Part shown: piece by piece, positions 39,469-64,000 of the stretch
How positions within the stretch are numbered: position 1 is the first letter of the stretch
How the letters are laid out: the number at the start of each line of letters is the position of its first letter
Assembly: GCF_964355755.1 (NCBI RefSeq)
Contig: NC_092678.1
Location: 6,588,422 to 6,652,421 of the forward strand
From: Antedon mediterranea
Lineage: Eukaryota; Animalia; Echinodermata
Length of the DNA: 64,000 bases
Direction of reading: 5' to 3'
The notes under the pieces: generated by a model
The model's database searches: none
Told to the model about the DNA's origin: nothing
Seen by the model: the letters and a program-made list of their open reading frames with translations, nothing else
Program-made: the position numbers and the translations under genes

Positions 39469-41091
39469 GAATGCCATCAAGACGATGACGCTCTAACAAC
39501 TGATACGGGAACAACTGAAAACACATCAACAGGAAACGCATCAACACATAAAGACAGTGGAGTTGGACACGCAACTGATGAGAGTGTCCGTAATGATTCT
39601 GAACAAGAAGGTGCGGGTGATGGACTATCTAATCAATTGGCAGATCGAATTCGTAATGGAGAATTACGTTGTTCTACCGATAGTTTTATGTCTAATGAGC
39701 AGGACATTGTCCATGAAATTTCATTAAGTGAATGTTTAAAATTCCGTGAACAATTATCAAATAAATGTGATAAACACATGCGGAGTGACACGGACAGTGA
39801 AAGTTTACGTGGTAAAGAGTCAAAGGTTATGAGATTAGGGTCTGATTCTATGGAAACGACTAGTGTTAGCGGAGAGGATACGTTAAATCGTAACGGACAA
39901 TGGATGGGAATGGCACATGATAGTCAAGTATCGGTGATATCACAAGATGTTCAGGATAGTATCTGGGCCAAACAAGATAGTTCTAACACTCAAAGCATGG
40001 AATCTGTTGATAGTGCGGGAAATTCTAAAGATAAATCAACACCTGAACCCCCGGTAGCTACTGGGAGTGGTGATGAGACTGAAATAAAGCCGGATGGCCC
40101 AGTTGAGCTATCATTAAAATTAAAAACACTTCAGAACGGTAAAGCTGACACTACAGCTCACATGAGTCTTGTTGATAAATCTACGAAGAAACCGTTACTG
40201 AGTGGGCGACACCGAAGTCGCTTACCTAAAACAAATCCTTCAAGTCCGCGTAAATCATCATCATCTAGTTCGCGTGACCGTTCTAGTAGCAAAGAAAAAT
40301 CAACAGCTAGCCCAGCAAAAGAAAAAGTTAAAACTACTAGTCAACAAAAATCTCACCATCAACGAATGCCCGCTACTAATCCTCGATTGAGGGCGCAATT
40401 GTCTCAACGTACACCTTACTTTGCACGAATCCAGGAGCAAGCGCAATATTTACACACTAAAAACAGTTTCTTGCAAAAAGAGAATATTCAACTTCGCAGA
40501 AGTTTAGAATCTCTTAGTAGTATTACATCGATTCCAAATTACGCTAAGCATTACCGTAGTTACATGCACCTAGTCAAAAAGAACGAAGAGAAAGCATATT
40601 TGGAGGATAAAGAAAAGGATAGCAAACAAGAATCGCAACCAGAAATGAAATGGAAGGTGAAAATTCGTAGCGACGGAACACGATATATTGCCAGAAGACC
40701 AGTAAGAGATAAAATATTAAAAGAACGTGAAAATAAATTACAAGATGAGAGAGCCGGTTTAACGACTGATGACGAAGCAATGAGTGAAATGAAATTGGGA
40801 CGGTATTGGAATAGAGAAGACCGTAAACGGCACGTGGAACGTGCAAAGGATCAGAGACGACGTAGAGAATTCATGGTGCAGGCTCGAATGGAAGCCTTGA
40901 AGGAACAGGGTAATGAAGAAAATAAAAAGCAGGATATTTTCGATTTAAGTCGTAAGAAAATGAATAAGAAAAAAGCCAAAGGTGGCTGGGATGACTTTAT
41001 GACTGTCGAAGAAATGCTAGCTCATGGTATTCGCATTAGCCCTAGCAATTCAAAAGAATTCAACCCTCTTCTTAATGTAACCACTGTTTAA
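39469..41091 (+). CDS. PDZRN4: PDZRN3/4-like, terminal coding exon (LNX3-homology region, C-terminal VTTV)
   Basis: ttatag|GAA acceptor in frame with the 484-aa ORF; motifs KDSGVG-TDES-RND, IP-YAKHYRSYMHL, WKVKIRSDGTRYI-RRPVRD, GLTTDDEAMSEMKLGRYW, MTVEEMLAHG and PDZ-binding VTTV-stop. Confidence 0.97.
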   Translation, partial: ECHQDDDALTTDTGTTENTSTGNASTHKDSGVGHATDESVRNDSEQEGAGDGLSNQLADRIRNGELRCSTDSFMSNEQDIVHEISLSECLKFREQLSNKCDKHMRSDTDSESLRGKESKVMRLGSDSMETTSVSGEDTLNRNGQWMGMAHDSQVSVISQDVQDSIWAKQDSSNTQSMESVDSAGNSKDKSTPEPPVATGSGDETEIKPDGPVELSLKLKTLQNGKADTTAHMSLVDKSTKKPLLSGRHRSRLPKTNPSSPRKSSSSSSRDRSSSKEKSTASPAKEKVKTTSQQKSHHQRMPATNPRLRAQLSQRTPYFARIQEQAQYLHTKNSFLQKENIQLRRSLESLSSITSIPNYAKHYRSYMHLVKKNEEKAYLEDKEKDSKQESQPEMKWKVKIRSDGTRYIARRPVRDKILKERENKLQDERAGLTTDDEAMSEMKLGRYWNREDRKRHVERAKDQRRRREFMVQARMEALKEQGNEENKKQDIFDLSRKKMNKKKAKGGWDDFMTVEEMLAHGIRISPSNSKEFNPLLNVTTV

Positions 41092-46082: not shown

Positions 46083-46885
46083 AACACTCTACCGAAAATG
46101 CCGGGAGTCTCCTTTTTTTAGACATCTTCTGCTCTCCTGAGGAAAATGCAATTTCCTCCTGGTATTTTGTTTAAACCAAAAAATATTCCGATAATAATTT
46201 ATAAAGAAAAAGAAAGAAACTATGCTAATATCGATCCGCAAGATGTTTAATAAGTAAATTTTGCGTCTTTGGCATGTATGACATACACTGTTTACTAATA
46301 TAATGCCAAAAACTTCAATAGCGCCCTCTATGAATGTATGTATATTTTTCAAAATGTTATAGCGCCCTCTAAAGTTTGGACATGATTTTGTAAACCTCTT
46401 AATATTTTTATTAATTAATTTTAATTTAGTATCAATGTTAAATACTGTATAAGTAGGCATATTTAGTGATTTGTTTCTACAATAATTGTAGAAGGAAACA
46501 ATGGTGTTTTTCAGCAGCAAAATCCATTAAACCGTGTATACACGATCGGAAAACACCCGTATTTGGGGAAAATCGTTGAACCTAAATTGGTTGAATTTGT
46601 TTTAATTGTCAATAACTAATTATCTAACTCAACTTAATTAGTAAACAGGGTTATGTTAGGTGGTTAAAATCAGTACCGAACGTATGAACCAACTTTATAT
46701 ACCATCGAGTAAACATTCTAGTGAATTAGAATTTTGCGTTTACGTAAATTTATATATAGATAATTGTATTTCAAAATTTGTGTAATTATTTATGTGGATT
46801 TCATGAAAGATATTTATAATACTGAACAAATTCTAGACTTAACGACAAAATTGGACTAGAAATTCACGAGAAATACCTTTCTGTT

Positions 46886-47823
46886 GATGTGGTGATGATG
46901 ATGATGATGATGATAGCGGTGGTGGTGATAATGATGTTGATGGTGGTGATAATGATGATGATGATAGCGGTGGTGGTGATAATGATGATGATGGTGATAA
47001 TGATGATGGTGGTGATAATGATGATGATGATAGCGGTGGTGATGATAATGATGATAGCGGTGGTGGTGATAATGATGATGATGGTGGTGGTGATAATGAT
47101 GATGATGGTGGTGGTGATAATGATGATGATGGTGGTGATAATGATGATGATGGTGGTGATAATGATGATGATGGTGGTGGTGATAATGATGATGATGATG
47201 GTGGTAGTGATAATGATGATGATGGTGGTGGTGATAATGATAATGATGATGTTGGTGGTGATAATGATAATGATGATGATGGTGATAATGATGATGATTG
47301 TGGTGATAATGATGATGATTGTGGTGATAATGATGATGATTGTGGTGATAATGATGATGATGGTGGTGATAATGATCATGATGGTGGTGATAATGATCAT
47401 GATGGTGGTAGTGATAATGATGATGGTGGTGGTGGTGATAATGATGATGATGGTGGTAATAATGATCATGATGGTGGTGATAATGATCATGATGGTGGTG
47501 ATAATGATGATGATGGTGGTGGTGATAATGATGATGGTGGTGGTGATAATGATGATGATGGTGGTGGTGATAATGATGATGATGGTGGTGATAATGATGA
47601 TGATGGTGGTGGTGATAATGATGATGGTGGTGGTGATAATGATGATGATGGTGGTGGTAATAACAATGCTGATGATGATGGTGGTGATACTGATATGATG
47701 ATGATGGTGATGATGATAGTGGTGAATGATATGATGGTGGTGGTGATAATTCAATGATGATGATGGTGTGATAATGATGATGATGGTGGTAGTGATAATG
47801 CTGATGATGGTGATGATGATGGT
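46886..47823. repeat. Compound trinucleotide repeat of GAT/GGT/AAT units
   Basis: ~940 bp with a ~21-bp higher-order pattern GGTGGTGATAATGATGATGAT; explains the His-, Ile- and Met-rich ORFs. Confidence 0.95.
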
Positions 47824-50238: not shown

Positions 50239-53200
50239 TTAACTATGACAACTACTGATCCATTTCAATTTAGCAACTGATGTTTCATCTGTGATATCTG
50301 AAAGGTCATTGCCCATCAGATTCAGCATACCTTGTTTCAATGCTATTCCATTTCTTTCACATTTATTCAGTACATACAAAATGATACCACCTGAAAGATT
50401 GCAATCTGCTAAATTTACATTTTCTAGTTCTGGAGAGAATTTTAATAAACTAGCTAATTTTGATACTTCAATTGAAGATAGGTTAATCCCACTTAAATTT
50501 AACTTTTTCCATGTCAATATCCTACCATGTTCATAACAGGCATCTACAAGACCTCTTATGTTATCAACTGACAGGCTGTAATCAATAGGCATAAATTCAC
50601 AATTTGATGAATATTCATAATTAAGTAGATTCACCAACTTAGAAAGTGTAACACAATCAATATCTGAAAGATTGTTTCCCTTTAAAACAAGCATGTCACT
50701 TTTCAATACCACATTTTCTTTATCACATTCCTTCAATAAATCTTTTATTATACTACCTGAAAGATGGCAATTGCTCATATTAAGATGTTGTAGTTGTGGA
50801 GAGAATTTTAATAATGAAGCTAATTTTGATACTTCAATTGAAGATAGGTTAATCCCACTTAAATTCATCTTTTTCCATGTCAATATCCTACCATGTTCAT
50901 AACAGGCATCTACAAGACCTCTTATGTTATCAACTGACAGACTGTAACCAATAAGCATTCCGGGGAAGTACGATAAAATTCCATAATCATTGCAAAGTAG
51001 ATTCACCAACTTAGAAAGTGTAACACCATCAATATCTGAAAGATTGTTTCCATACAAACCAAGCATGTCACTTTTCAATACCACATTTTCTTTATCACAT
51101 TCATTCAATAAATCTTTTATTATACTACCCGAAAGATGGCAATTGCTCATTTCAAGATGTTCTAGTTGTGGAGAGAATTTTAATAAACAAGCCAATTTTG
51201 ATACTTCAATTGAAGATAGGTTAATCTCACTTAAATTCACATATTTCCAATTTAAATTTGTAATATCTTTATGACAGGCATCTGAAAGATCTTTTAAGTT
51301 ACTAAGTGACAGGCTATATTCAGTAAATGTGAATTGCCAATCAAAAATATTGGTTTCCTCAATTACTAAATTCACAAATTTAGAGAGTGAAACCCCATCA
51401 ATATCTGAAAGATTCAAGTTGTTTCCTTTTATATAAAGTATGGAAGGTTTCAATACCACATTTTCTTTATCACATTCATTCAATAAATCCTTTATTATAC
51501 TACCTGAAAGATGGCAGTCACTCATATCAAGATGTTCTAGTTGTGGAGAGAATTTTAATAACCAAGCTAATTTTGATCCTTCAATTGAAGATAGGTTAAT
51601 TCCACTTAAATCCAAACTTTTCCATATCAATATCCTACCATGTTCATAACAGGCATCTGCAAGACCTCTTATGTTATAAACTGACAGGCTGTAATCAGTA
51701 GGCCTCAATCCGCATTTATTGCGATAAAAATTATATCTATTCCCAAGTAGATTCACCAACTTAGAAAGTGTAACACCATCAATATCTGAAAGATTGTTTC
51801 CCTTTAAAACAAGCATGCCACTTTTCAATACCACATTTTCTTTATCACATTCATTCAATAAATCTTTTATAATACTACCTGAGAGATTGCAGTTACTCAT
51901 ATTAAGAAATTTTAGTTGTGGAGAGAATTTTAATAAGCAAGCTAATTTTAATCGTTCAATTGAAGATAGGTTAATCTCACTTAATTCCAACGCTTTCCAA
52001 TTCAAATTTGTACCATGATCAAGACAGGCATCTACAAGACCTTTCAAGTTATCAACTGTTAGACTATAATCAGTAAATGTGAATACATCACCCATTAGAT
52101 TTACCAACTTAGAAAGTGAAACCCCATTTATATCTGCAAAATTGTTTCCCTTTAGAGCAAGCATGCCAGGTTTCAATACCACCTTGTTTTTATCACATTC
52201 ATTAAATAAATCTTTTATTATACTACCCGAGAGATTACAATTTCTCATATTAAGACGTTGTAGGTGTGGAGAGAATTTTAATAAACAAGCTAATTTTGAT
52301 CCTTCAATTGAAGATAGGTTAATCTCACTTAATTTTAACTTTTTCCAATTCAAATTTGTACCACGATCAAGACAGGCATCTACAAGATCTTTTAGGTTAT
52401 TAACTGATAGACTATACGTAGTAAATGTGACTGCTAATTCATCAACTGCTAATTCATCATCAACATAAACATGCATTAGATTTACCAACTTAGAAAGTGA
52501 AACCCCATTTATATCACTTAAATAATTTTGTTCAAGTTGAATGGTTATATTAACTGGTAAGATATTTTCATCCAAAACCTGGTTCAATGTCACACCAGTT
52601 ACACTGTAAGGTTCAAAACACAGCATTTTAAGGTTAGGCGAATATTTCAACAAATGAAACAAGAATTCAGGACTCACTGACTTGTCAACTGTTAAATTTG
52701 TGAAGCCAGTGTATTGAAATTGAAATTTGTCCATTTCAGTTAAGAGGGTATCAATCTTGTCTTCAAAAAAATTTAAGGATGATAGATTATATCTATGTGC
52801 ATAATTGCGCCATTCCCCATGTGTAATTATAAATAAATGAACTAACATAGCACAACAATTGGTTTGTTTATTGGCTTCTGATTCCTTAATAGTTGAAAGC
52901 CAAGAATCAACATGTGCAACAAAGTTATCATTTTTAAGGCATCTGCTCATAAGTTGTATCAAATGTTGATTTTCTATTGGCGTTGCTCTATCCTCTTCCA
53001 TATTACTCTCAAGGTCAAAAGATAAAATATGTCTAAATGACTCTGACATGTCTGCACACGTTTCTTTCAGTTCTTCATCACTTGATGTTTTTGTATCTAA
53101 TTCTTCTATTACAGAATGATTATCTTCTGCCTTTACATATGTGAAATACTTTGCTAGTGAATACAAATTTGAAGCTTTTACTTTCAACCAATGTTTCATA

Positions 53201-54533
53201 AATTTACCAGCATCAGCACCTAGAAATCCTATAGTGAATATTATTGTCATATGTAGATATTCATTAGATATTATCAAGTCACATTCCTCCTCATTTAAAT
53301 CCTGACACTTTTCAGCAAGATAAAACCCTCCTAATGCCTCTGAAACTAACTTGTGTGGTGGAGAATACAACTCATTTTTATCACTTTTACTAAGAGGTGG
53401 ATTTTTGTAAACAAATCCAATTTTGAGTGCCAAGTCCACTATTGATTTATCAAACATAGTTGTGAACTCATACTTGTCAATGATCAGTTTATTTGTCTTT
53501 AGTCCTTCATAGATCCATTGACCTAATGCTATTATTGCAGTTTTATATTCAGCTGGAATTCTTTCAAAACTGGCAATTTCAGATTTATTTTCGTCACTAT
53601 TTACCTTGGATAAATATTGATTTAAAGTACAACAAATTAGTTCTTTGAAAAGATCTGATAAGTCATCCGAAAGGTTTCCGGATTCTTCCCATGTTTTGCA
53701 TATCATAAGTAATGACAAAGGAGATGAACACAATTCAAATACTGAATGCTCTTGCCTGTGTCGATTATAACACAATTTCCTAAATAGCCTTTCCCCTAAA
53801 TCCTTATTATTTGCAAAATATCTATTAATGTAGTTCTTTATACTTATTACACTGAATCCATTTACCTCCACATGCACATCACATTTATCAATAAATTTTG
53901 CAGTGTTTTCAGGTCGTGATGTTATTATTGTGGTGTTTTTAAAATCTGTATTTGTAAACAGGACCAAAGGATCACCAGCACCTTGCTGCAACTCATCTAA
54001 TCCATCTAACAGTAACATTATTTCATCCCCATGGTTGATTATGAATGTTTTAATTAACTGTACAGACTCTTCATCGTTTCTTGTACCGATACAAATAGTA
54101 AATGTTTCAAGATAATCTATATTAATAATAATGGCATCTAAGATTTTCTTTCCAGCCTGTAAGTCTCTGATATTTACTAGAAACACTATTTTATCAGAAA
54201 ATGTTTTATCTTTACCAGTAGCCCAGTTATAAGTAATGTATCTAAGAAGGGTTGTTTTTCCCATCCCACCTTTACCTGTAAATATGATTTTATGAGCATT
54301 TTTATCTTTTATCATCACCAATATCTCTTCCAATGTTTTAGGTACTTTTTCTTTCTGGTCATGTTGGCTTCTGTTCTGTTTTGTAGCTTCTGCTTGATTC
54401 TCTTTCTTACTTGATTGTACTAACTTGAGATCAGTGAATAACTCTTTTATATCGAGGTCCTCAAGAACTGCTGTTTCCAATTTGTTAAAATCTTTATATA
54501 ATTCTTGTTGCTTTTTTTTCAGGTATTTTTTAA
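50239..54533 (-). CDS. NOD-like receptor, coding exon 3: NACHT NTPase plus LRR region
   Basis: aacag acceptor at 54535-54534, phase 1, continuous with the 1413-aa ORF; Walker A GKGGMGKTT, Walker B LLLDGLDE, sensor-1 IITSRP, LCSSPLSL helical-domain motif, winged-helix His; C-terminal LxxLxLxxNxL repeats. Confidence 0.95.
50250..52540 (-). repeat. Six in-frame tandem LRR cassettes of 348-381 bp
   Basis: SK(L/F)VNL anchor at about 50631, 51003, 51372, 51753, 52101 and 52482; spacings 372, 369, 381, 348, 381, all multiples of three. Confidence 0.92.
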
Positions 54534-55090
54534 CTGTTAAAAAGAAGATACATAAAGTTGTGTTTCTTACTAAAAACTGAATGGTACAAAGATTATTTGT
54601 ATATTTTACACACCTGCTTGTATTCTTGCAATTTGATTAAGTTAATTACACATCACATGTCATTTGGAATTAACCCTACCTAGGGGAAAAGTGATATCTA
54701 TGGTAATAATTAACACGCTCTAATGCACCTTCACCTTTCTGTAAACATTTTGAGGATTTTTGCGTGTTTGGAAATCAACTTGTTGTGTGCGCAGTCTATA
54801 ACTGTTCTACTCAGCATCCAAAGTTGGAGCACTGCCTTTTTAATGGCCTAGCTTCCTGGCCTATTATTCTTGAATGATGTGGTATTTTGTAACGGCCAGA
54901 GGCTCATTCACAAACAAAATGTGTTCTTCCACAAGGTGGTATGAAAGAAATACAATACAATTACAGAATTCATGGTAAAACTCCAAATGTCATACTATGT
55001 ACCTCAAATACTATTAATGTATATTGAAAATCAGACTACAGCTATTTATACGAAAAACAATAAATAGAATTCTTCATTGTCATAACTCAC

Positions 55091-55198
55091 TTCTTGTTTC
55101 TTGTGATTGTGAAGCCTTTTTCTGTGGTGGATGATCTTCACAATCAGAGGAACTTTGGTCCAATTTGTGCTGGTTTGATTTACCTTCAAATTCTACAC
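55091..55198 (-). CDS. NLR coding exon 2, low-complexity linker
   Basis: ctttag|GT acceptor and A|gtgagt donor; 108 nt, phase 1-1, open: VEFEGKSNQHKLDQSSSDCEDHPPQKKASQSQETR. Confidence 0.8.
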
Positions 55199-56017: not shown

Positions 56018-56552
56018 CTTTTTCTAGTAATATGTTTTTTGCACGTGGTCCAAGGCAACAAGCAAACCTTTTTATTTTGTCTGGTTTATTGACTAAATGT
56101 TCATTAACCTCTAGGTAAAGTACTGCTTTCCAAATATTGTCAAATTTAAAATGTTCAAGTTGATAGTTAGCAATAACAGCATCAAACCCTTCTTGGTCAA
56201 CTTGCCTCAATGCCTTAAACAGTGTTCTCCTATATGATGACAACTGTTTATAATCATCAGTTCTTTGTTCACTGTCTTTCCTATAGCGACTGACAAGAAT
56301 TTCAGCATCTTTAATTTCTGATATTTTAGAAATCTCTAATAAAAGTTGAGCTTTAATAGGAGTGATATCACCTTTATTTTCTAGAGCATTAAATAAATTA
56401 TGTGAGTTGAAGCCTTTTCTGGTAATGTCTCCTACAGGTAAATGTTCAAGTAGTAAGATTTGCAACCAAGTGTATTGTTCTCCTTTATAGTATTTACTGA
56501 GATCAGCTTTCAATTCCGAAAAGGTTTTCTTTTTACAGTCAATGTCAGTCAT
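56018..56552 (-). CDS. NLR coding exon 1, tandem death-effector-domain-like region
   Basis: ATG 13 nt after a ttgcag acceptor; AAAG|gtacgt phase-1 donor; F..LK..LS, LF..LE..G.I....LL.EI and a second LSSYRR.LF repeat resemble tandem DEDs. Confidence 0.82.
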
Positions 56553-58939
56553 TTTACAAACAAATCTGCAAATACAAGATACTGATAGTATTATAAATTA
56601 CTACATTAAGTTTAAGGATTCAATACTAGCAAATTATACCTGGGTGGATTTCAAATTTAGTTAACACATTCCTAGTACAATTCCGATCAATTTACCCCCA
56701 GACATCGGTATCTCCCTATAATTACCAACCGCTTCATTCACATGCTGGTGATAAATCCTTCCCAGTACAAACTTTAGCTTCATAATGAGACAATGTTGGA
56801 GCCCCAGGGCGATGCAGAGCTATGATATGGTACTTTGCTAAGTCTGTATGCATAGGTGTCATATTGGCTAATAAATAAAATATTAATTGTGATTACCTCT
56901 GCCCCAGCCTTCTTTCCCCTCTCCCCATCCCCGTCACAATCAACAAACCTTAATACGGTTCAAATGTAGTAAATGTCCCCACTACAATTCCAATCATGTT
57001 GTTCCTCATTACACCTAAACGGCAATATCTCCTCCCCTCCTTCCCTCCCTTCCGCACTTGATGTGTTTAAAGACTTCCCAGTACAAATTTCCGGTTATGT
57101 TGAGCCATCACTCCGTGGCAGTTTTCAAATGTAGTTTAAAACATTCCCAGTTCGATTACGTTGATAGTATAGGCTCACCACCAAACTTTCAACACCTTCC
57201 GGGGGATAATTAAAATACTTTCGTACTAGTACAATTCTCCAAGCAAACATTTTTTTAAGCAAATTTTTAGGTTAACTGAGTTTGTTTAATTTATTGTCTT
57301 ACTTTTTTCATGATACATTGATATTATTTTTTTATTTTTGACGGTTTTGATAAAAAAGCTTATTGAAAACAAATTTAGGCCAAGAATAACCAAAGTTTGG
57401 TCTCCGTTTGTCATGGCAGGAGATATTTGAAAACATGAACCTCTAAGAATTTCCTGTTTATGTTTTCAAAAATTTCAGGGAAATATGTCTTTAACCTGTT
57501 TATAAATAATTGTGAAAATAACAGAACTTACATGCTGCACTGAATCTATAGTATATCAAAGATTTTCTGAAGGGAATTGTGGACACTAGGTTTCCTAAAA
57601 AGTAAGTTTTAGTCCGAAAATCCACCTTGTTTTTCAGAATTTTTCTACATAGAAATCTTGTTTTTCTGCCTGGCATCTAGCCATCTTGTTTTTCTACCTG
57701 GTTTAGCACATAACATCAACAGACTTACATTGCCTATAGTTATGTTTATTGTTATGCAAAGTGCCAACTCCCTTTTTACTGCGTTCTGTGAGTTAAAAAA
57801 TCAGTCTTGCGTATTATTCTATTCAATAAAAAATTGATAGGCTTATAATATATTCATTTTCAATCAATTGTATAAAGAAACTGAAACCAAGCTATGCTAT
57901 TCATATACGCAATACAGTAAATTGTTATGAGGCCTATGTAATTATAGACAGCGCACTCTACAGGTAGCTTTTCAATCACGCAATTTCAAAACCTCTACTG
58001 TAGTCTACCTTGAATATTATGAAGCTATGAAAGCTATGCATAAAAAAATTAGGATTTTGTAATATGCAATGTATTTTTAATGCTAAATACAAGTGCTTGA
58101 ACTTGATTCATAAAAACAATATTCATGATTATTAATGATTTCCTGGCAACATAGAGAGAAATTAATTTGATTCTCCCCTATACAGTAAAATGTGCAATAA
58201 GTTCAGAAAATATTTATTATATATATATATATATATATTTTTTTTTTAGTATTTTGTATCATTATCATCCATGAAAATTATGAAATGAAGGTATAGAAAT
58301 CTTGAGTATTCATGTGTATTGTCTCAAACAAGAAGTAATTAAATGTTTAAACCAACCAATTCCACATATCTTGAATTTTTTACATGAAACATATATATGT
58401 CTTTATCAGAAGAAATCCTGTAACGGCTAATATTAATTACCTACCTGTGAGCAGAATATTTTGATTACACTGTATGGCAAAAATGAGAATACAGATGAGT
58501 TGTTGGTGTTTCCATGGAGAAAAGCTGGTTGTGAGAAACCCAGACTGATCTAGACTCTGTGTGACATGTCTGTGTGTGTGCGACATTGGGTTAAAGTCAT
58601 GTGATACCACTAGATGGTGAATTATGGATGTGCAAAGCGTACAGAAGTACTTGCGGCAAAGAATAATTACGCAAGCATGCGCTAGTACTTTATAAAGTTC
58701 GATTGATTGATTTTGGAATGAAACATCTCATAAATACGTATTATAATAACAATTATGGAATATTTTAAAATTCATAATGCATGCTTTGCTTACTAATAAA
58801 TTAAAGTGTCGTGGCAAATTATTACAAATGGAATGATGAACAAGTCATGAAATTTAATAAAGTTGGCGGCGCAGTTTGTGTCAAAAAAAGCTTCTAATCA
58901 ATCCAATGTTGACTGTATACAGATTGATTGTAATCAGTA

Positions 58940-59125: not shown

Positions 59126-60284
59126 CAAAGATGAGTAATATGAATGTTTGTATTTTTTTTTGGAGCTTGGCCTTGAAGGCCAGTTGTAGTTGAAAAGCCA
59201 TGCTAGGTGGATGTATACGTATTACAATAAGGTAATAGATATGTTCAACTATAGTAGGCAAAAGGCAATATAGGTCTAAATGTTCTGGTACAAAATAATT
59301 AGCACAATCTTTAATGAGTTTTAAGTTAATTACCTTTATTGATGGTTTTATACTGTATTTACGTTTGCTATGGAGGTTGAGCCATTTGGGCCACACCTTA
59401 ATTTGCTATAGCCTATTGGCTATATGTATACTCACCTGCTTATATTTAAAGTGTCTTTGGTTATGATCTAGACTGGACTAATTTATGAGGCATTTTCATT
59501 AGGCCTATTTAATTTTTACTTCTTGCCCTGATTGATTGAAATATATATTTATACTGGGTAACCTCTTCAGTCAAATACTGGTCTCCCAGAGGGCCCAGTT
59601 GGTGATCAGTGGCTGTGATGTACTAATACACCGAGGTAACCCCCCTACTCGTCTCGAAAGATGTACTAGGTTCTTTAAACTGGACCCACACAACACAATT
59701 TTTCTTTAGTGATTTTATTGTCCAGTATTGCTTTCATTTTTTTCATATTGCAAAGTATATAATAACAAATTCAATGGCCGTTCCAAATTTATTCTTGATA
59801 CAATTTGTTTTTAAAATAATTTGTCTGAGTACTTTTATCATAAAAAGTGCACTGTTATTATATTTATGCCTACTACTCCCATGCAAATTGGTATAATTTT
59901 ATAACCACATATTAAGGCAAAAAAAGACAGTGTGGAGCACGAGTAACTGCTTGTAACAATTTTATAACTCCATGTATAGATGATGCATTAAAAGGGTACC
60001 CTTCCAAAATAAAGTGAACACAATCCATACGTCTAGTTTGTATGTCCAAATTTTAAGTTCTTATCTGAGAAAAAACATTGTCCCCACAATTTTTTTTTGT
60101 ATTTGCTTTTCCATGCATCTACACACATGGGTAGAAATGGGGTATAACATGACCTGAATAGCACAGAGCCAGTATCTTATGTGGCCAATATTAGATGTTT
60201 AAACATTTTACACTTTTTACATTTTCAGTAATCCTGTCAACATTCTCAATTTGGAAAGAAGTATGCTCATAAAACGACCCTTGA

Positions 60285-60820
60285 ACCCAACTATAATCTT
60301 AACACTAATCTAATTTAAATTATTAATCCTAATAATGCTATTCCTAACACTAATCCTAACACTTATCTTAACACTAACAATTCTCTTAACTTTAACACTT
60401 ACCCTAACTTTAACATTAATCCTAACTTTAACATTAATCCTAACTTTAACATTGTTCCTAACTTTAACATTAATCCTAACTTTAACATTAATCCTAACTT
60501 TAACACTAATCCTAACTTTAACACTTATCCCTAACTTTAACATAAATCCTAAATTTAAAATGTACTAAATTTAACATTAATCCTAACTTGAACAATATTT
60601 CTAACTTTAACATTATTCCTAACTTTAACAATTATTTCTAACTTTAACATTATCCCTAACTTTAAAAATATTTCTAACTTTAACATTATCCCTAACTTTA
60701 ACATTATCCCTAACTTTAACATTATCCCTAACTTTAACATTATCCCTAACATTAACAATATTTCTAACTGTAACATTATCCCTAACTTTAACGCTAATCC
60801 TAAACCAAACCCTAAAACTT
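60285..60820. repeat. 18-bp telomere-like minisatellite (CCTAACTTTAACATTAAT)n
   Basis: Built from hexamers CCTAAC/TTTAAC/ATTAAT related to CCCTAA; bounded by a 16-bp inverted repeat. Confidence 0.92.
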
Positions 60821-60939
60821 AATTTACCCAAATATGAGCATGCTTCTTCATTTTGTCTGAATACATCTGCCAAAACATGGAGGTAGAGTGCTTTCGTGGG
60901 AAGTGGAGGTATGTTGTTGATGTTCATGTCCGACAAAGC

Positions 60940-61040
60940 AATCTGGTCAAGAAGCAATGTGGTCAAGATGAAGTCATCTGGTCAAGATGAAGCCATCTGG
61001 TCAAGATGAAGCCATCTGGTCAAGATGAAGCAATTTGGTC
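60940..61040. repeat. 19-bp tandem repeat (GGTCAAGATGAAGCCATCT)n at the start of the large array
   Basis: Four to five copies here, about two in each later array unit. Confidence 0.9.
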
Positions 61041-64000
61041 AACAAGAGTAGCGCCCGAGAGTATCGCCATGTTGCATCCATTCGAGTCTTGCCCTCCTGT
61101 ATGAAGTGGCACCCGAAGGTAGCGCCCCGTACTTACGCCATCTGGGTGAGGCTGTGTCTGCCACATGGCCAGGTCACGATGAGAAGGTTACTCAGTTTGG
61201 GGAATAAAAAAGTTAGTGGTAGAGGCACCCAGAGGCGAGCGCTCCTCAGTGGTAACGCACTCTATGGTACCCAACTGAATGGTATAGAGCTCAGAGGTAG
61301 CGCTCACGTGTAGGTCTATAGCTGTTTGTTTACAATGGAGCACTCAAGAGGTAATTTTACAATATTTTACTGATGATATTTTTGTCCATTTTATATTTTA
61401 CTATTGTTGGTCATTTTTCCATTTTAAGGTGATTTAATATTTTTGGTAATTTTCCCATTTTAAGGTGTTTATAATAAATCAAAAAATATGTATTAATTTT
61501 ATATGTTAATATTTATGTGCATAAATATTTTGATTTAAGTTTTCAATTTCTAGGAATAATGCCCGACAAGATGAAGCCATCTGGTCAAGATGAAGCAATT
61601 TGGTCAACAAGAGTAGCGCCCGAGAGTATCGCCATGTTGCATCCATTAGAGTCTTGCCCTCCTGTATGAAGTGGCACCCGAAGGTAGCGCCCCGTACTTA
61701 CGCCATCTGGGTGAGGCTGTGTCTGCCACATGGCCAGGTCACGATGAGAAGGTTACTCAGTTTGGGGAATAAAAAAGTCAGTGGTAGAGGCACCCAGAGG
61801 CGAGCGCTCCTCAGTGGTAACGCACTCTATGGTACCCAACTGAATGGTATAGAGCTCAGAGGTAGCGCTCACGTGTAGGCCTATAGCTGTTTGTTTACAA
61901 TGGAGCACTCAAGAGGTAATTTTACAATATTTTACTGATGATATTTTTGTCCATTTTATATTTTACTATTGTTGGTCATTTTTCCATTTTAAGGTGATTT
62001 AATATTTTTGGTAATTTTCCCATTTTAAGGTGTTTATAATAAATCAAAAAATATGTATTAATTTTATATGTTAATATTTATGTGCATAAATATTTTGATT
62101 TAAGTTTTCAATTTCTAGGAATAATGCCCGACAAGATGAAGCCATCTGGTCAAGATGAAGCAATTTGGTCAACAAGAGTAGCGCCCGAGAGTATCGCCAT
62201 GTTGCATCCATTAGAGTCTTGCCCTCCTGTATGAAGTGGCACCCGAAGGTAGCGCCCCGTACTTACGCCATCTGGGTGAGGCTGTGTCTGCCACATGGCC
62301 AGGTCACGATGAGAAGGTTACTCAGTTTGGGGAATAAAAAAGTCAGTGGTAGAGGCACCCAGAGGCGAGCGCTCCTCAGTGGTAACGCACTCTATGGTAC
62401 CCAACAGAATGTTATAGAGCTCAGAGGTAGCACTCACGTGTAGGCCTATAGCTGTTTGTTACAATGGAGCACTCTAGAGGTAATTTTTCCATTTTACAAT
62501 ATTTTACTGATGATATTTTTGTCCATTTTATATTTTACTATTGTTGGTCATTTTTCCATTTTAAGGTGATTTAATATTGTTGGTAATTTTCCTATTTTAA
62601 GGTGTTTATAATAAATCAAAAAATATGTATTAATTTTATATGTTAATATTTATGTGCATAAATATTTTGATTTAAGTTTTCAATTTCTAGGAATAATGCC
62701 CGACAAGATGAAGCCATCTGGTCAAGATGAAGCAATTTGGTCAACAAGAGTAGCGCCCGAGAGTATCGCCATGTTGCATCCATTCGAGTCTTGCCCTCCT
62801 GTATGAAGTGGCACCCGAAGGTAGCGCCCCGTACTTACGCCATCTGGGTGAGGCTGTGTCTGCCACATGGCCAGGTCACGATGAGAAGGTTACTCAGTTT
62901 GGGGAATAAAAAAGTCAGTGGTAGAGGCACCCAGAGGCGAGCGCTCCTCAGTGGTAACGCACTCTATGGTACCCAACTGAATGGTATAGAGCTCAGAGGT
63001 AGCGCTCACGTGTAGGCCTATAGCTGTTTGTTACAATGGAGCACTCTAGAGGTAATTTTTCCATTTTACAATATTTTACTGATGATATTTTTGTTCATTT
63101 TATATTTTACTAGTGTTGGTCATTTTTCCAATTTAAGGTGATTTAATATTGTTGGTAATTTTCCCATTTTAAGGTGTTTATAATAAATCAAAAAATATGT
63201 ATTAATTTTATATGTTAATATTTATGTGCATAAATATTTTGATTTAAGTTTTCAATTTCTAGGAATAATGCCCGACAAGATGAAGCCATCTGGTCAAGAT
63301 GAAGCAATTTGGTCAACAAGAGTAGCGCCCGAGAGTATCGCCATGTTGCATCCATTCGAGTCTTGCCCTCCTGTATGAAGTGGCACCCGAAGGTAGCGCC
63401 CCGTACTTACGCCATCTGAGTGAGGCTGTGTCTGCCACATGGCCAGGTCACGATGAGAAGGTTACTCAGTTTGGGGAATAAAAAAGTCAGTGGTAGAGGC
63501 ACCCAGAGGCGAGCGCTCCTCAGTGGTAACGCACTCTATGGTACCCAACTGAATGGTATAGAGCTCAGAGGTAGCGCTCACGTGTAGGCCTATAGCTGTT
63601 TGTTACAATGGAGCACTCAAGAGGTAATTTTTCCATTTTACAATATTTTACTGATGATATTTTTGTTCATTTTATATTTTACTAGTGTTGGTCATTTTTC
63701 CAATTTAAGGTGATTTAATATTGTTGGTAATTTTCCCATTTTAAGGTGTTTATAATAAATCAAAAAATATGTATTAATTTTATATGTTAATATTTATGTG
63801 CATAAATATTTTGATTTAAGTTTTCAATTTCTAGGAATAATGCCCGACAAGATGAAGCCATCTGGTCAAGATGAAGTAATCTGGTCAACAAGAGTATAGC
63901 GCCCGAGAGTATGGCCATGTTGCATCCATTAGAGTCTTAATTGCCCTCCTGTATGAAGTGGCACCCGAAGGTAGCGCCCCGTACTTACGCCATCTGGGTG
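60995..64000 (+). repeat. 565/572-bp near-identical tandem array, at least 5.3 copies, running off the window
   Basis: Unit starts (GAATAATGCCCGAC) at 61554, 62119, 62691, 63263 and 63835; each unit is a GC-balanced 361-362-bp block plus an AT-rich 203-211-bp block. Confidence 0.97.

Follow-up and report, generated by a model that had tools for sequence, protein, structure and literature searches.

What does a tandem array mean when each of its units is laid out as an exon followed by an intron: a gene for a repetitive non-coding RNA, or a repeat whose boundaries happen to resemble splice sites? The question is raised by the crinoid Antedon mediterranea, in which a unit of about 570 bases is arranged head to tail in some six copies (60850..64000, plus strand) beside an NLR gene, at the end of the stretch of 64,000 nucleotides analysed here (the window). 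A preliminary description of this DNA read the array as a candidate repeat-exon RNA gene head-to-head with the NLR gene, and all of its block coordinates and spacer lengths were reproduced (Table 1). Each unit consists of a block of 361–362 nt with a GC content of 0.51 and a spacer of 203–211 nt with a GC content of 0.18 that opens with GT and closes with TAG. Successive periods are 565, 565, 572, 572 and 572, and whole units differ by 2–10 substitutions; the truncated block 6 carries 5 substitutions and insertions of 2 and 4 nt within 166 nt.

Table 1. Features of the NLR gene, the intervening flank and the tandem array, in coordinates of the window
Feature	Position	Strand	Remarks
NLR NACHT-LRR exon	50239..54533	-	NACHT E 5e-17; 85% to A. 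mediterranea P0002, residues 40-520
NLR linker exon	55091..55198	-	108 nt, phase 1-1
NLR likely first coding exon	56018..56567	-	ATG 56552; tandem-DED-like; 30% to P0034 N-terminus, E 7e-15; ends in phase 1
Acceptor-like site	60212..60229	+	Pyrimidine tract and CAG, first exon base 60229; from motif scan
Minisatellite stretch with inverted arms	60256..60848	.	18-nt unit at 60387-60803, 23 copies; ~590 bp, abuts block 1
5' part of block 1, unique	before 61002	+	19-nt repeats at 60936-61042, 5.8 copies
Block 1	60850..61350	+	61002-61350 common to all copies; end = AG|GTAAT; 99% to block 2 over 349 nt
Spacer 1	61351..61553	+	203 nt, GC 0.18; putative GT-AG intron, partly 18/36-nt sub-repeat
Block 2	61554..61915	+	362 nt, putative non-coding exon
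Spacer 2	61916..62118	+	203 nt; no difference from spacer 1
Block 3	62119..62479	+	361 nt
Spacer 3	62480..62690	+	211 nt; 8-nt insertion close to donor
Block 4	62691..63051	+	361 nt; fold against shuffles z 0.60 (+), -0.63 (-)
Spacer 4	63052..63262	+	211 nt; branch-point-like YTRAY at 63239
Block 5	63263..63623	+	361 nt; has both variants of run X1
Spacer 5	63624..63834	+	211 nt; no difference from spacer 4
Block 6	63835..64000	+	Truncated by window end; older copy, ~93% identical

The argument for an exon with its intron depends on where the splice-like signals lie relative to the change in composition. In a fit that was blind to splice motifs, the passage from GC-rich to AT-rich sequence was placed at 61916 (95% range 61881–61919), with the donor at 61915, and the return to GC-rich sequence at 62125 (range 62113–62126), with the final base of the spacer at 62118. 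Both signals fell inside the fitted ranges in 10 of 3000 composition-keeping shuffles (11 if either strand was counted); taken singly, the donor did so in 161 and the acceptor in 150 of the 3000. The coincidence corresponds to p ~0.004, or ~0.05 with the donor discounted. The donor is not independent evidence because monomers of the spacer's own sub-repeat match it: its 19-mer agrees with two internal monomers of the 18/36-nt sub-repeat at 17/19 and 16/19 bases. The bases upstream of it are part of the AGAGGTA-type sub-repeat of the block, and the donor may have arisen incidentally where two repeats meet. Repetition of the signals adds nothing either, since all units derive from one and the five copies amount to a single observation, not five. 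On the plus strand the spacer is rich in T (52% T, 30% A) and contains a branch-like YTRAY whose A lies 21 nt upstream of the AG, and splice-like sites on the minus strand fall away from the boundaries. The exon-plus-intron layout advanced in the preliminary description is thus favoured on the plus strand by the boundary coincidence, the T-rich spacer and the YTRAY, the splicing itself being putative, and each copy is likely to be a non-coding exon with its intron.

Comparison with the host sequence gives a different picture from the 'AT-rich like host introns' of that description, given that the two inferred introns of the NLR gene have GC contents of 0.29 and 0.33 and show no excess of T, as against a GC content of 0.18 and 52% T in the spacer. 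The GC content of the block is above that of every 361-nt window sampled in 1–60200 (maximum 0.49), coding exons included (0.31–0.40). Its CpG observed/expected ratio is 0.59, compared with 0.62 in the background and 0.22 in the NLR coding exon; being at background, unlike that exon, the block shows no sign of a long stay in a methylated gene body. Every block also holds an AATAAA (61203, 61768), through which a long multi-exon RNA must read. Tandem arrays are abundant across the window (57 TRF rows). One stretch of ~940 bp (46885–47821) is a TGA/TGG-rich repeat of 3 and 21 nt with a GC skew of 0.77 and with both strands open.

As to coding capacity, stops in all three plus-strand frames, already pointed out in the preliminary description, were confirmed in the four complete blocks out of four. 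In the array spliced in silico, the longest frame starting at ATG reaches 70 aa, with 10 ATGs per exon, and a circle of one block contains no endless frame in silico. An open stretch of 94 codons is present in four of the five near-identical copies and is interrupted by a stop in block 5. No relative was found for this 94-aa frame (4 candidates, none with E ≤1) or for a 51-aa block frame (18 candidates, none with E ≤10), and P0122, considered as a relative of a 37-aa frame, was rejected as chance, its E of 2.8e-5 being summed over repeats with no significant stretch. None of the four block frames tried matched Pfam and none of three block peptides was found by exact look-up; the top score of 0.89 returned by the ESM Atlas for one block frame, with low recognition, is a lead only. 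The block length of 361/362 nt is no multiple of three, and the 2- and 4-nt insertions in block 6 break the frame. A repeat-exon coding gene would keep its frame across the spliced units and have protein homologues, neither of which was found here. Together, the sequences support the view that the block is non-coding.

Known classes of RNA are likewise not represented. Rfam gave no match at the gathering score in the whole window, and matches to SNORD37 and CRISPR-DR58 (E 0.35–7) were dismissed, the best of them (E 0.35) lying on the minus strand of the 19-nt repeats of the block. ARAGORN reported no tRNA gene. The block has no stable fold on either strand when compared with shuffles (z-values in Table 1). 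Hairpins of the miRNA type were rejected, with z-values of the best 90-nt window of −2.0 (plus) and −2.9 (minus), on the basis of 30 shuffles for each of 19 windows per strand, and with bulged stems. The idea of a CTCF array was set aside, as no consensus match occurs in the array at ≤1 mismatch. Three 14-mers per block (61212–61303 and the equivalent positions of the other blocks) come within 2–3 mismatches of a tRNA D-arm/A-box motif, which was picked after inspection of the sequence. The head of a tRNA-derived SINE has an A box followed by a B box; by eye, no B box lies downstream, and the sole B-box-like motif is upstream of the A-box-like ones. An exact 32-base pattern of the block was found neither in viral nor in metagenome contigs (0 matches in each).

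The size and history of the array can be approached from sequencing runs. In all three DNA runs, which come from one sample (possibly the source of the assembly) and in which contig depth is a rough measure of copies, the block exceeds the flank 3.8, 4.4 and 5.2 times (188.5/49.5, 1139.6/256.2 and 210/40.7). The copies within the window predict a ratio of 3.95, and the closeness of the measured ratios to this value argues against an assembly artefact, a large satellite or a dispersed family. The unit is real as genomic DNA, since contigs of the three runs continue through the donor into the spacer; at the 5' flank, one invariant contig runs through. Loose ends are absent from the contigs of four runs, which as contigs cannot prove the absence of dispersed copies. 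The array is likely to be both short and local, with a near-identical part that probably stops near the edge of the window. Among the five copies, variable sites number 8/349 in blocks and 5/203 in spacers (Fisher p = 1, at low power). Variant columns are mosaic between copies (C-A-A-C-C-A, for example, in one column and A-A-T-T-A in a second), a pattern that fits unequal exchange. The recent expansion proposed earlier is supported by the near-identity of the units and by the periods of 565 and then 572 bp, and neutrality is probable for the added copies.

Among five runs that matched the block, none is on record as RNA and one, run X1, from another study, is only guessed to be so. It covers the block at 60983–61300 with >99% identity and bears two variants of block 5, including that at 61145, a variant readable only with the DNA of that animal. 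Over 60805–61470, the contigs of X1 leave the 5' flank, 61301–61350 and the spacer uncovered and contain no joint, which in filtered contigs is not evidence either way; this comparison took in four of the five runs and, of the spacer, the donor half, and a junction would be visible from the donor side alone. The index share of X1 is 0.38, in better accord with 'block only' (0.31–0.50, depending on the scenario) than with 'block plus spacer' (0.56–0.73), and it is given no weight here, as a GC-biased DNA library of low depth would give the same pattern. The X1 contig is compatible with low-level transcription of the putative transcript. The functional multimer or 361-nt circle envisaged in the preliminary description finds no support, the block being devoid of stable structure, of constraint relative to the spacer and of long inverted flanks. 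Exons that form circRNAs commonly, if not obligatorily, have long inverted complementary flanking introns; self-comparison of the spacers revealed no long inverted complementary sequence and one AT-rich palindrome of 22 nt in each.

On the other side of the flank, the NLR gene contains a NACHT–LRR open frame at 50239–54636 (minus), the best relative of which is a DED–NACHT protein of A. mediterranea, with further proteins of Antedon and Anneissia next in rank. Its three exons join in phase 1. The N-terminal DED-like exon is ~21% identical to the DEDs of P0002, compared with 30% to those of the distant paralogue P0034, and the NACHT region 85% identical to P0002. Because this exon diverges while all junctions are in phase 1, the sequences suggest N-terminal domain shuffling between NLRs. 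The LRR region (50384–52430, minus) is a tandem array of its own, with a unit of ~350–375 bp, 5.5 copies and 80% matches, and it exceeds the aligned span of the orthologue. The DED exons of this A. mediterranea orthologue have no match in the window. A location of the array inside an NLR intron was considered and is disfavoured by the presence of a divergent DED-like exon that carries an ATG of its own and is compatible in phase. The head-to-head orientation is plausible, in that the window includes what is likely to be the first coding exon, in which an ATG is in frame; this ATG is 4.3 kb from the array and faces away from it. Candidate untranslated 5' parts of the NLR gene are a 25-nt piece (58469–58445) and a consensus donor at 59436. 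Donor-like sites at 59436 (minus) and 59635 (plus) flank a small GC-rich patch and face outward at a spacing of 200 bp, which makes this a candidate bidirectional promoter. Near the probable untranslated exons, 58607–58618 is an exact match to a CTCF-type consensus, of which the window has 2 matches at ≤1 mismatch (1.5 expected by chance).

Closer to the array, the proposal that block 1 is a first exon is doubtful, given the acceptor-like site at 60229, ~620 bp upstream, and the donor-like site at 59635, further upstream; block 1 could be an internal exon that uses 60229 as a candidate acceptor. Homology of the region of this acceptor with the start of the array exons was rejected, 178 of 500 shuffles being equally good. 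The minisatellite stretch between this site and block 1 is telomere-like and finds no counterpart in the rest of the window. Its inverted arms of 16 nt (60256–60271 and 60833–60848) match at 15/16 positions, which 8 of 500 shuffles equalled, and the stretch is possibly an old inserted non-autonomous element. Ends of the TRIM/LTR and Helitron types were not found by eye. Further away, an open frame of 540 codons (39469–41091, plus; end ...LLNVTTV) received no name from searches of Pfam, PDB and the ESM Atlas, and presumably resembles the terminal exon in genes of the PDZRN3/PDZRN4 type.

The explanation that we prefer, with a probability of about one half, is a recent local amplification, to about six copies, of a unit of 565–572 bp made of a non-coding exon and its intron, within a transcript that diverges from the NLR gene, the extra copies being neutral. 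The ancestral state would have been a pair of exons, one like block 1 and the other like block 6, which misaligned and, by unequal crossing-over with patchy homogenisation, would have generated further copies. Since the period of such a duplication equals one exon plus one intron, all splice sites would stay intact, and selection is not required to explain the 'perfect' layout. Were the array transcribed and spliced, it would give a linear RNA of n × 361 nt, which would be an lncRNA or the 5'-untranslated leader belonging to a gene past the end of the window, in a copy number likely to vary between animals. A possible alternative, to be held at well below even odds, is that of a composite complex repeat with fortuitous splice signals, scarcely or never spliced. 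A decayed GC-rich repeat (19-nt and CTCAG(A/T)GGTA-type) would have been joined through GGTA microhomology to an AT-rich 18-nt minisatellite, then amplified as a small satellite. Short sub-repeats do build both block and spacer, the donor coincides with the start of a spacer monomer, the acceptor alone recurs in 150/3000 shuffles, neither block nor spacer has the composition of host exons and introns, and the window is full of tandem arrays, with a second minisatellite adjoining this one. Such a repeat accounts less easily for two signals on the same strand, in the correct order and at fitted boundaries (11/3000), for the sense-strand excess of T and the branch-like motif in the spacer, and for the presence of the block in run X1, should this be RNA as guessed.

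Three further explanations carry little weight. That the array is a functional lncRNA with repeat exons of the Firre-RRD type, or a source of circRNA, sharing a bidirectional promoter with the NLR gene, its modules binding protein and tuning the NLR by copy number, is unlikely. The exon-like, local, repeated module, its divergence from an NLR ATG 4.3 kb away with outward donor-like sites at 59436 and 59635, the CTCF-like site between these and the NLR, and the precedent of FIRRE (PMC4820808) speak for it. They are set against folding no better than that of shuffles, the lack of an Rfam family, a divergence of blocks that is not below that of spacers, in near-identical copies too young to reveal selection, and spacers in direct repeat with one 22-nt palindrome each, by which back-splicing is not favoured. 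The more specific scheme, in which a bidirectional promoter at ~59.5 kb would drive both the NLR and a spliced ncRNA with an exon number set by the copy-variable array, as a dose-tunable regulator of the NLR in multimeric or 361-nt circular form, is slightly less probable still. Lower again stands a tandem repeat inside a mobile element, either a non-autonomous transposon or a tRNA-derived retroposon, with its far end past the window. The neighbouring stretch with short inverted arms and the three tRNA-D-arm-like 14-mers of each block recall such elements, but the arms surround the minisatellite and not the array, the depth ratios of 3.8–5.2 and the invariant contig at the 5' flank are unlike a dispersed family, ARAGORN found no gene, and the B-box-like motif is on the wrong side of the A-box-like ones. 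Decayed protein-coding repeat exons, that is, a pseudogene, are very improbable: the GC content and size are those of exons and the 94-codon stretch is open in four of five near-identical copies, but three frames have no homologue, Pfam gives no match, the ESM Atlas lead is weak and the length is no multiple of three.

The preferred reading, a local amplification of an exon with its intron, has several known counterparts. Unequal crossing-over can duplicate exons in tandem; when the period comprises one exon and one intron, the splice sites survive, and cases of this kind are mostly known from coding exons. Mosaic variants are common to such duplications and to the present array, whose exon differs in being non-coding and in having a length that is no multiple of three. 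In form, the array also resembles the RRD of Firre, where a repeat of one locus makes up several exons of a non-coding transcript (here putative): the RRD corresponds to 7 of the 13 human FIRRE exons, is spliced, binds hnRNPU, retains the transcript in the nucleus and is conserved among mammals (PMC4820808). By comparison, the copies of the array are strictly in tandem, 98–99% identical and known here from DNA. The hosts of SNORD115/SNORD116 and the rat Bsr/RBII-36 array have a similar layout of tandem units, each a non-coding exon plus an intron (putative in the present array). They differ in that every intron carries a box C/D snoRNA (PMC3413130), whereas Rfam matches nothing in the spacer, and in that their arrays are large, compared with about six copies here. 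No D box was seen by eye after the single TGATGA of the spacer, and no intronic snoRNA or miRNA of the kind found in SNORD115/116 and Bsr hosts was detected; lacking an intronic small RNA, the array is not a member of the SNORD115/116-type host arrays. In the literature searched, neither this locus nor repeat-exon RNAs of crinoids are mentioned.

Most likely, the locus offers a snapshot of the birth of a repeat-exon ncRNA, in which a few rounds of unequal crossing-over, a known process, multiply an exon without loss of its splice sites. It also has a practical side. Tandem duplications mimic back-splice junctions of circRNAs (PMC6401160), and here, as in those cases, the putative junction of a linear multimer would be the same as that of a one-exon circle; such arrays would yield false circRNA calls. 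If the array were spliced and co-regulated with the NLR gene, and if its copy number changed NLR output, it would constitute a structural polymorphism linked to the regulation of an immune receptor in a little-studied class of echinoderms, and a promoter-sharing, copy-variable RNA, if true, would be, within the literature searched, the first case of its kind at the locus of an invertebrate NLR.
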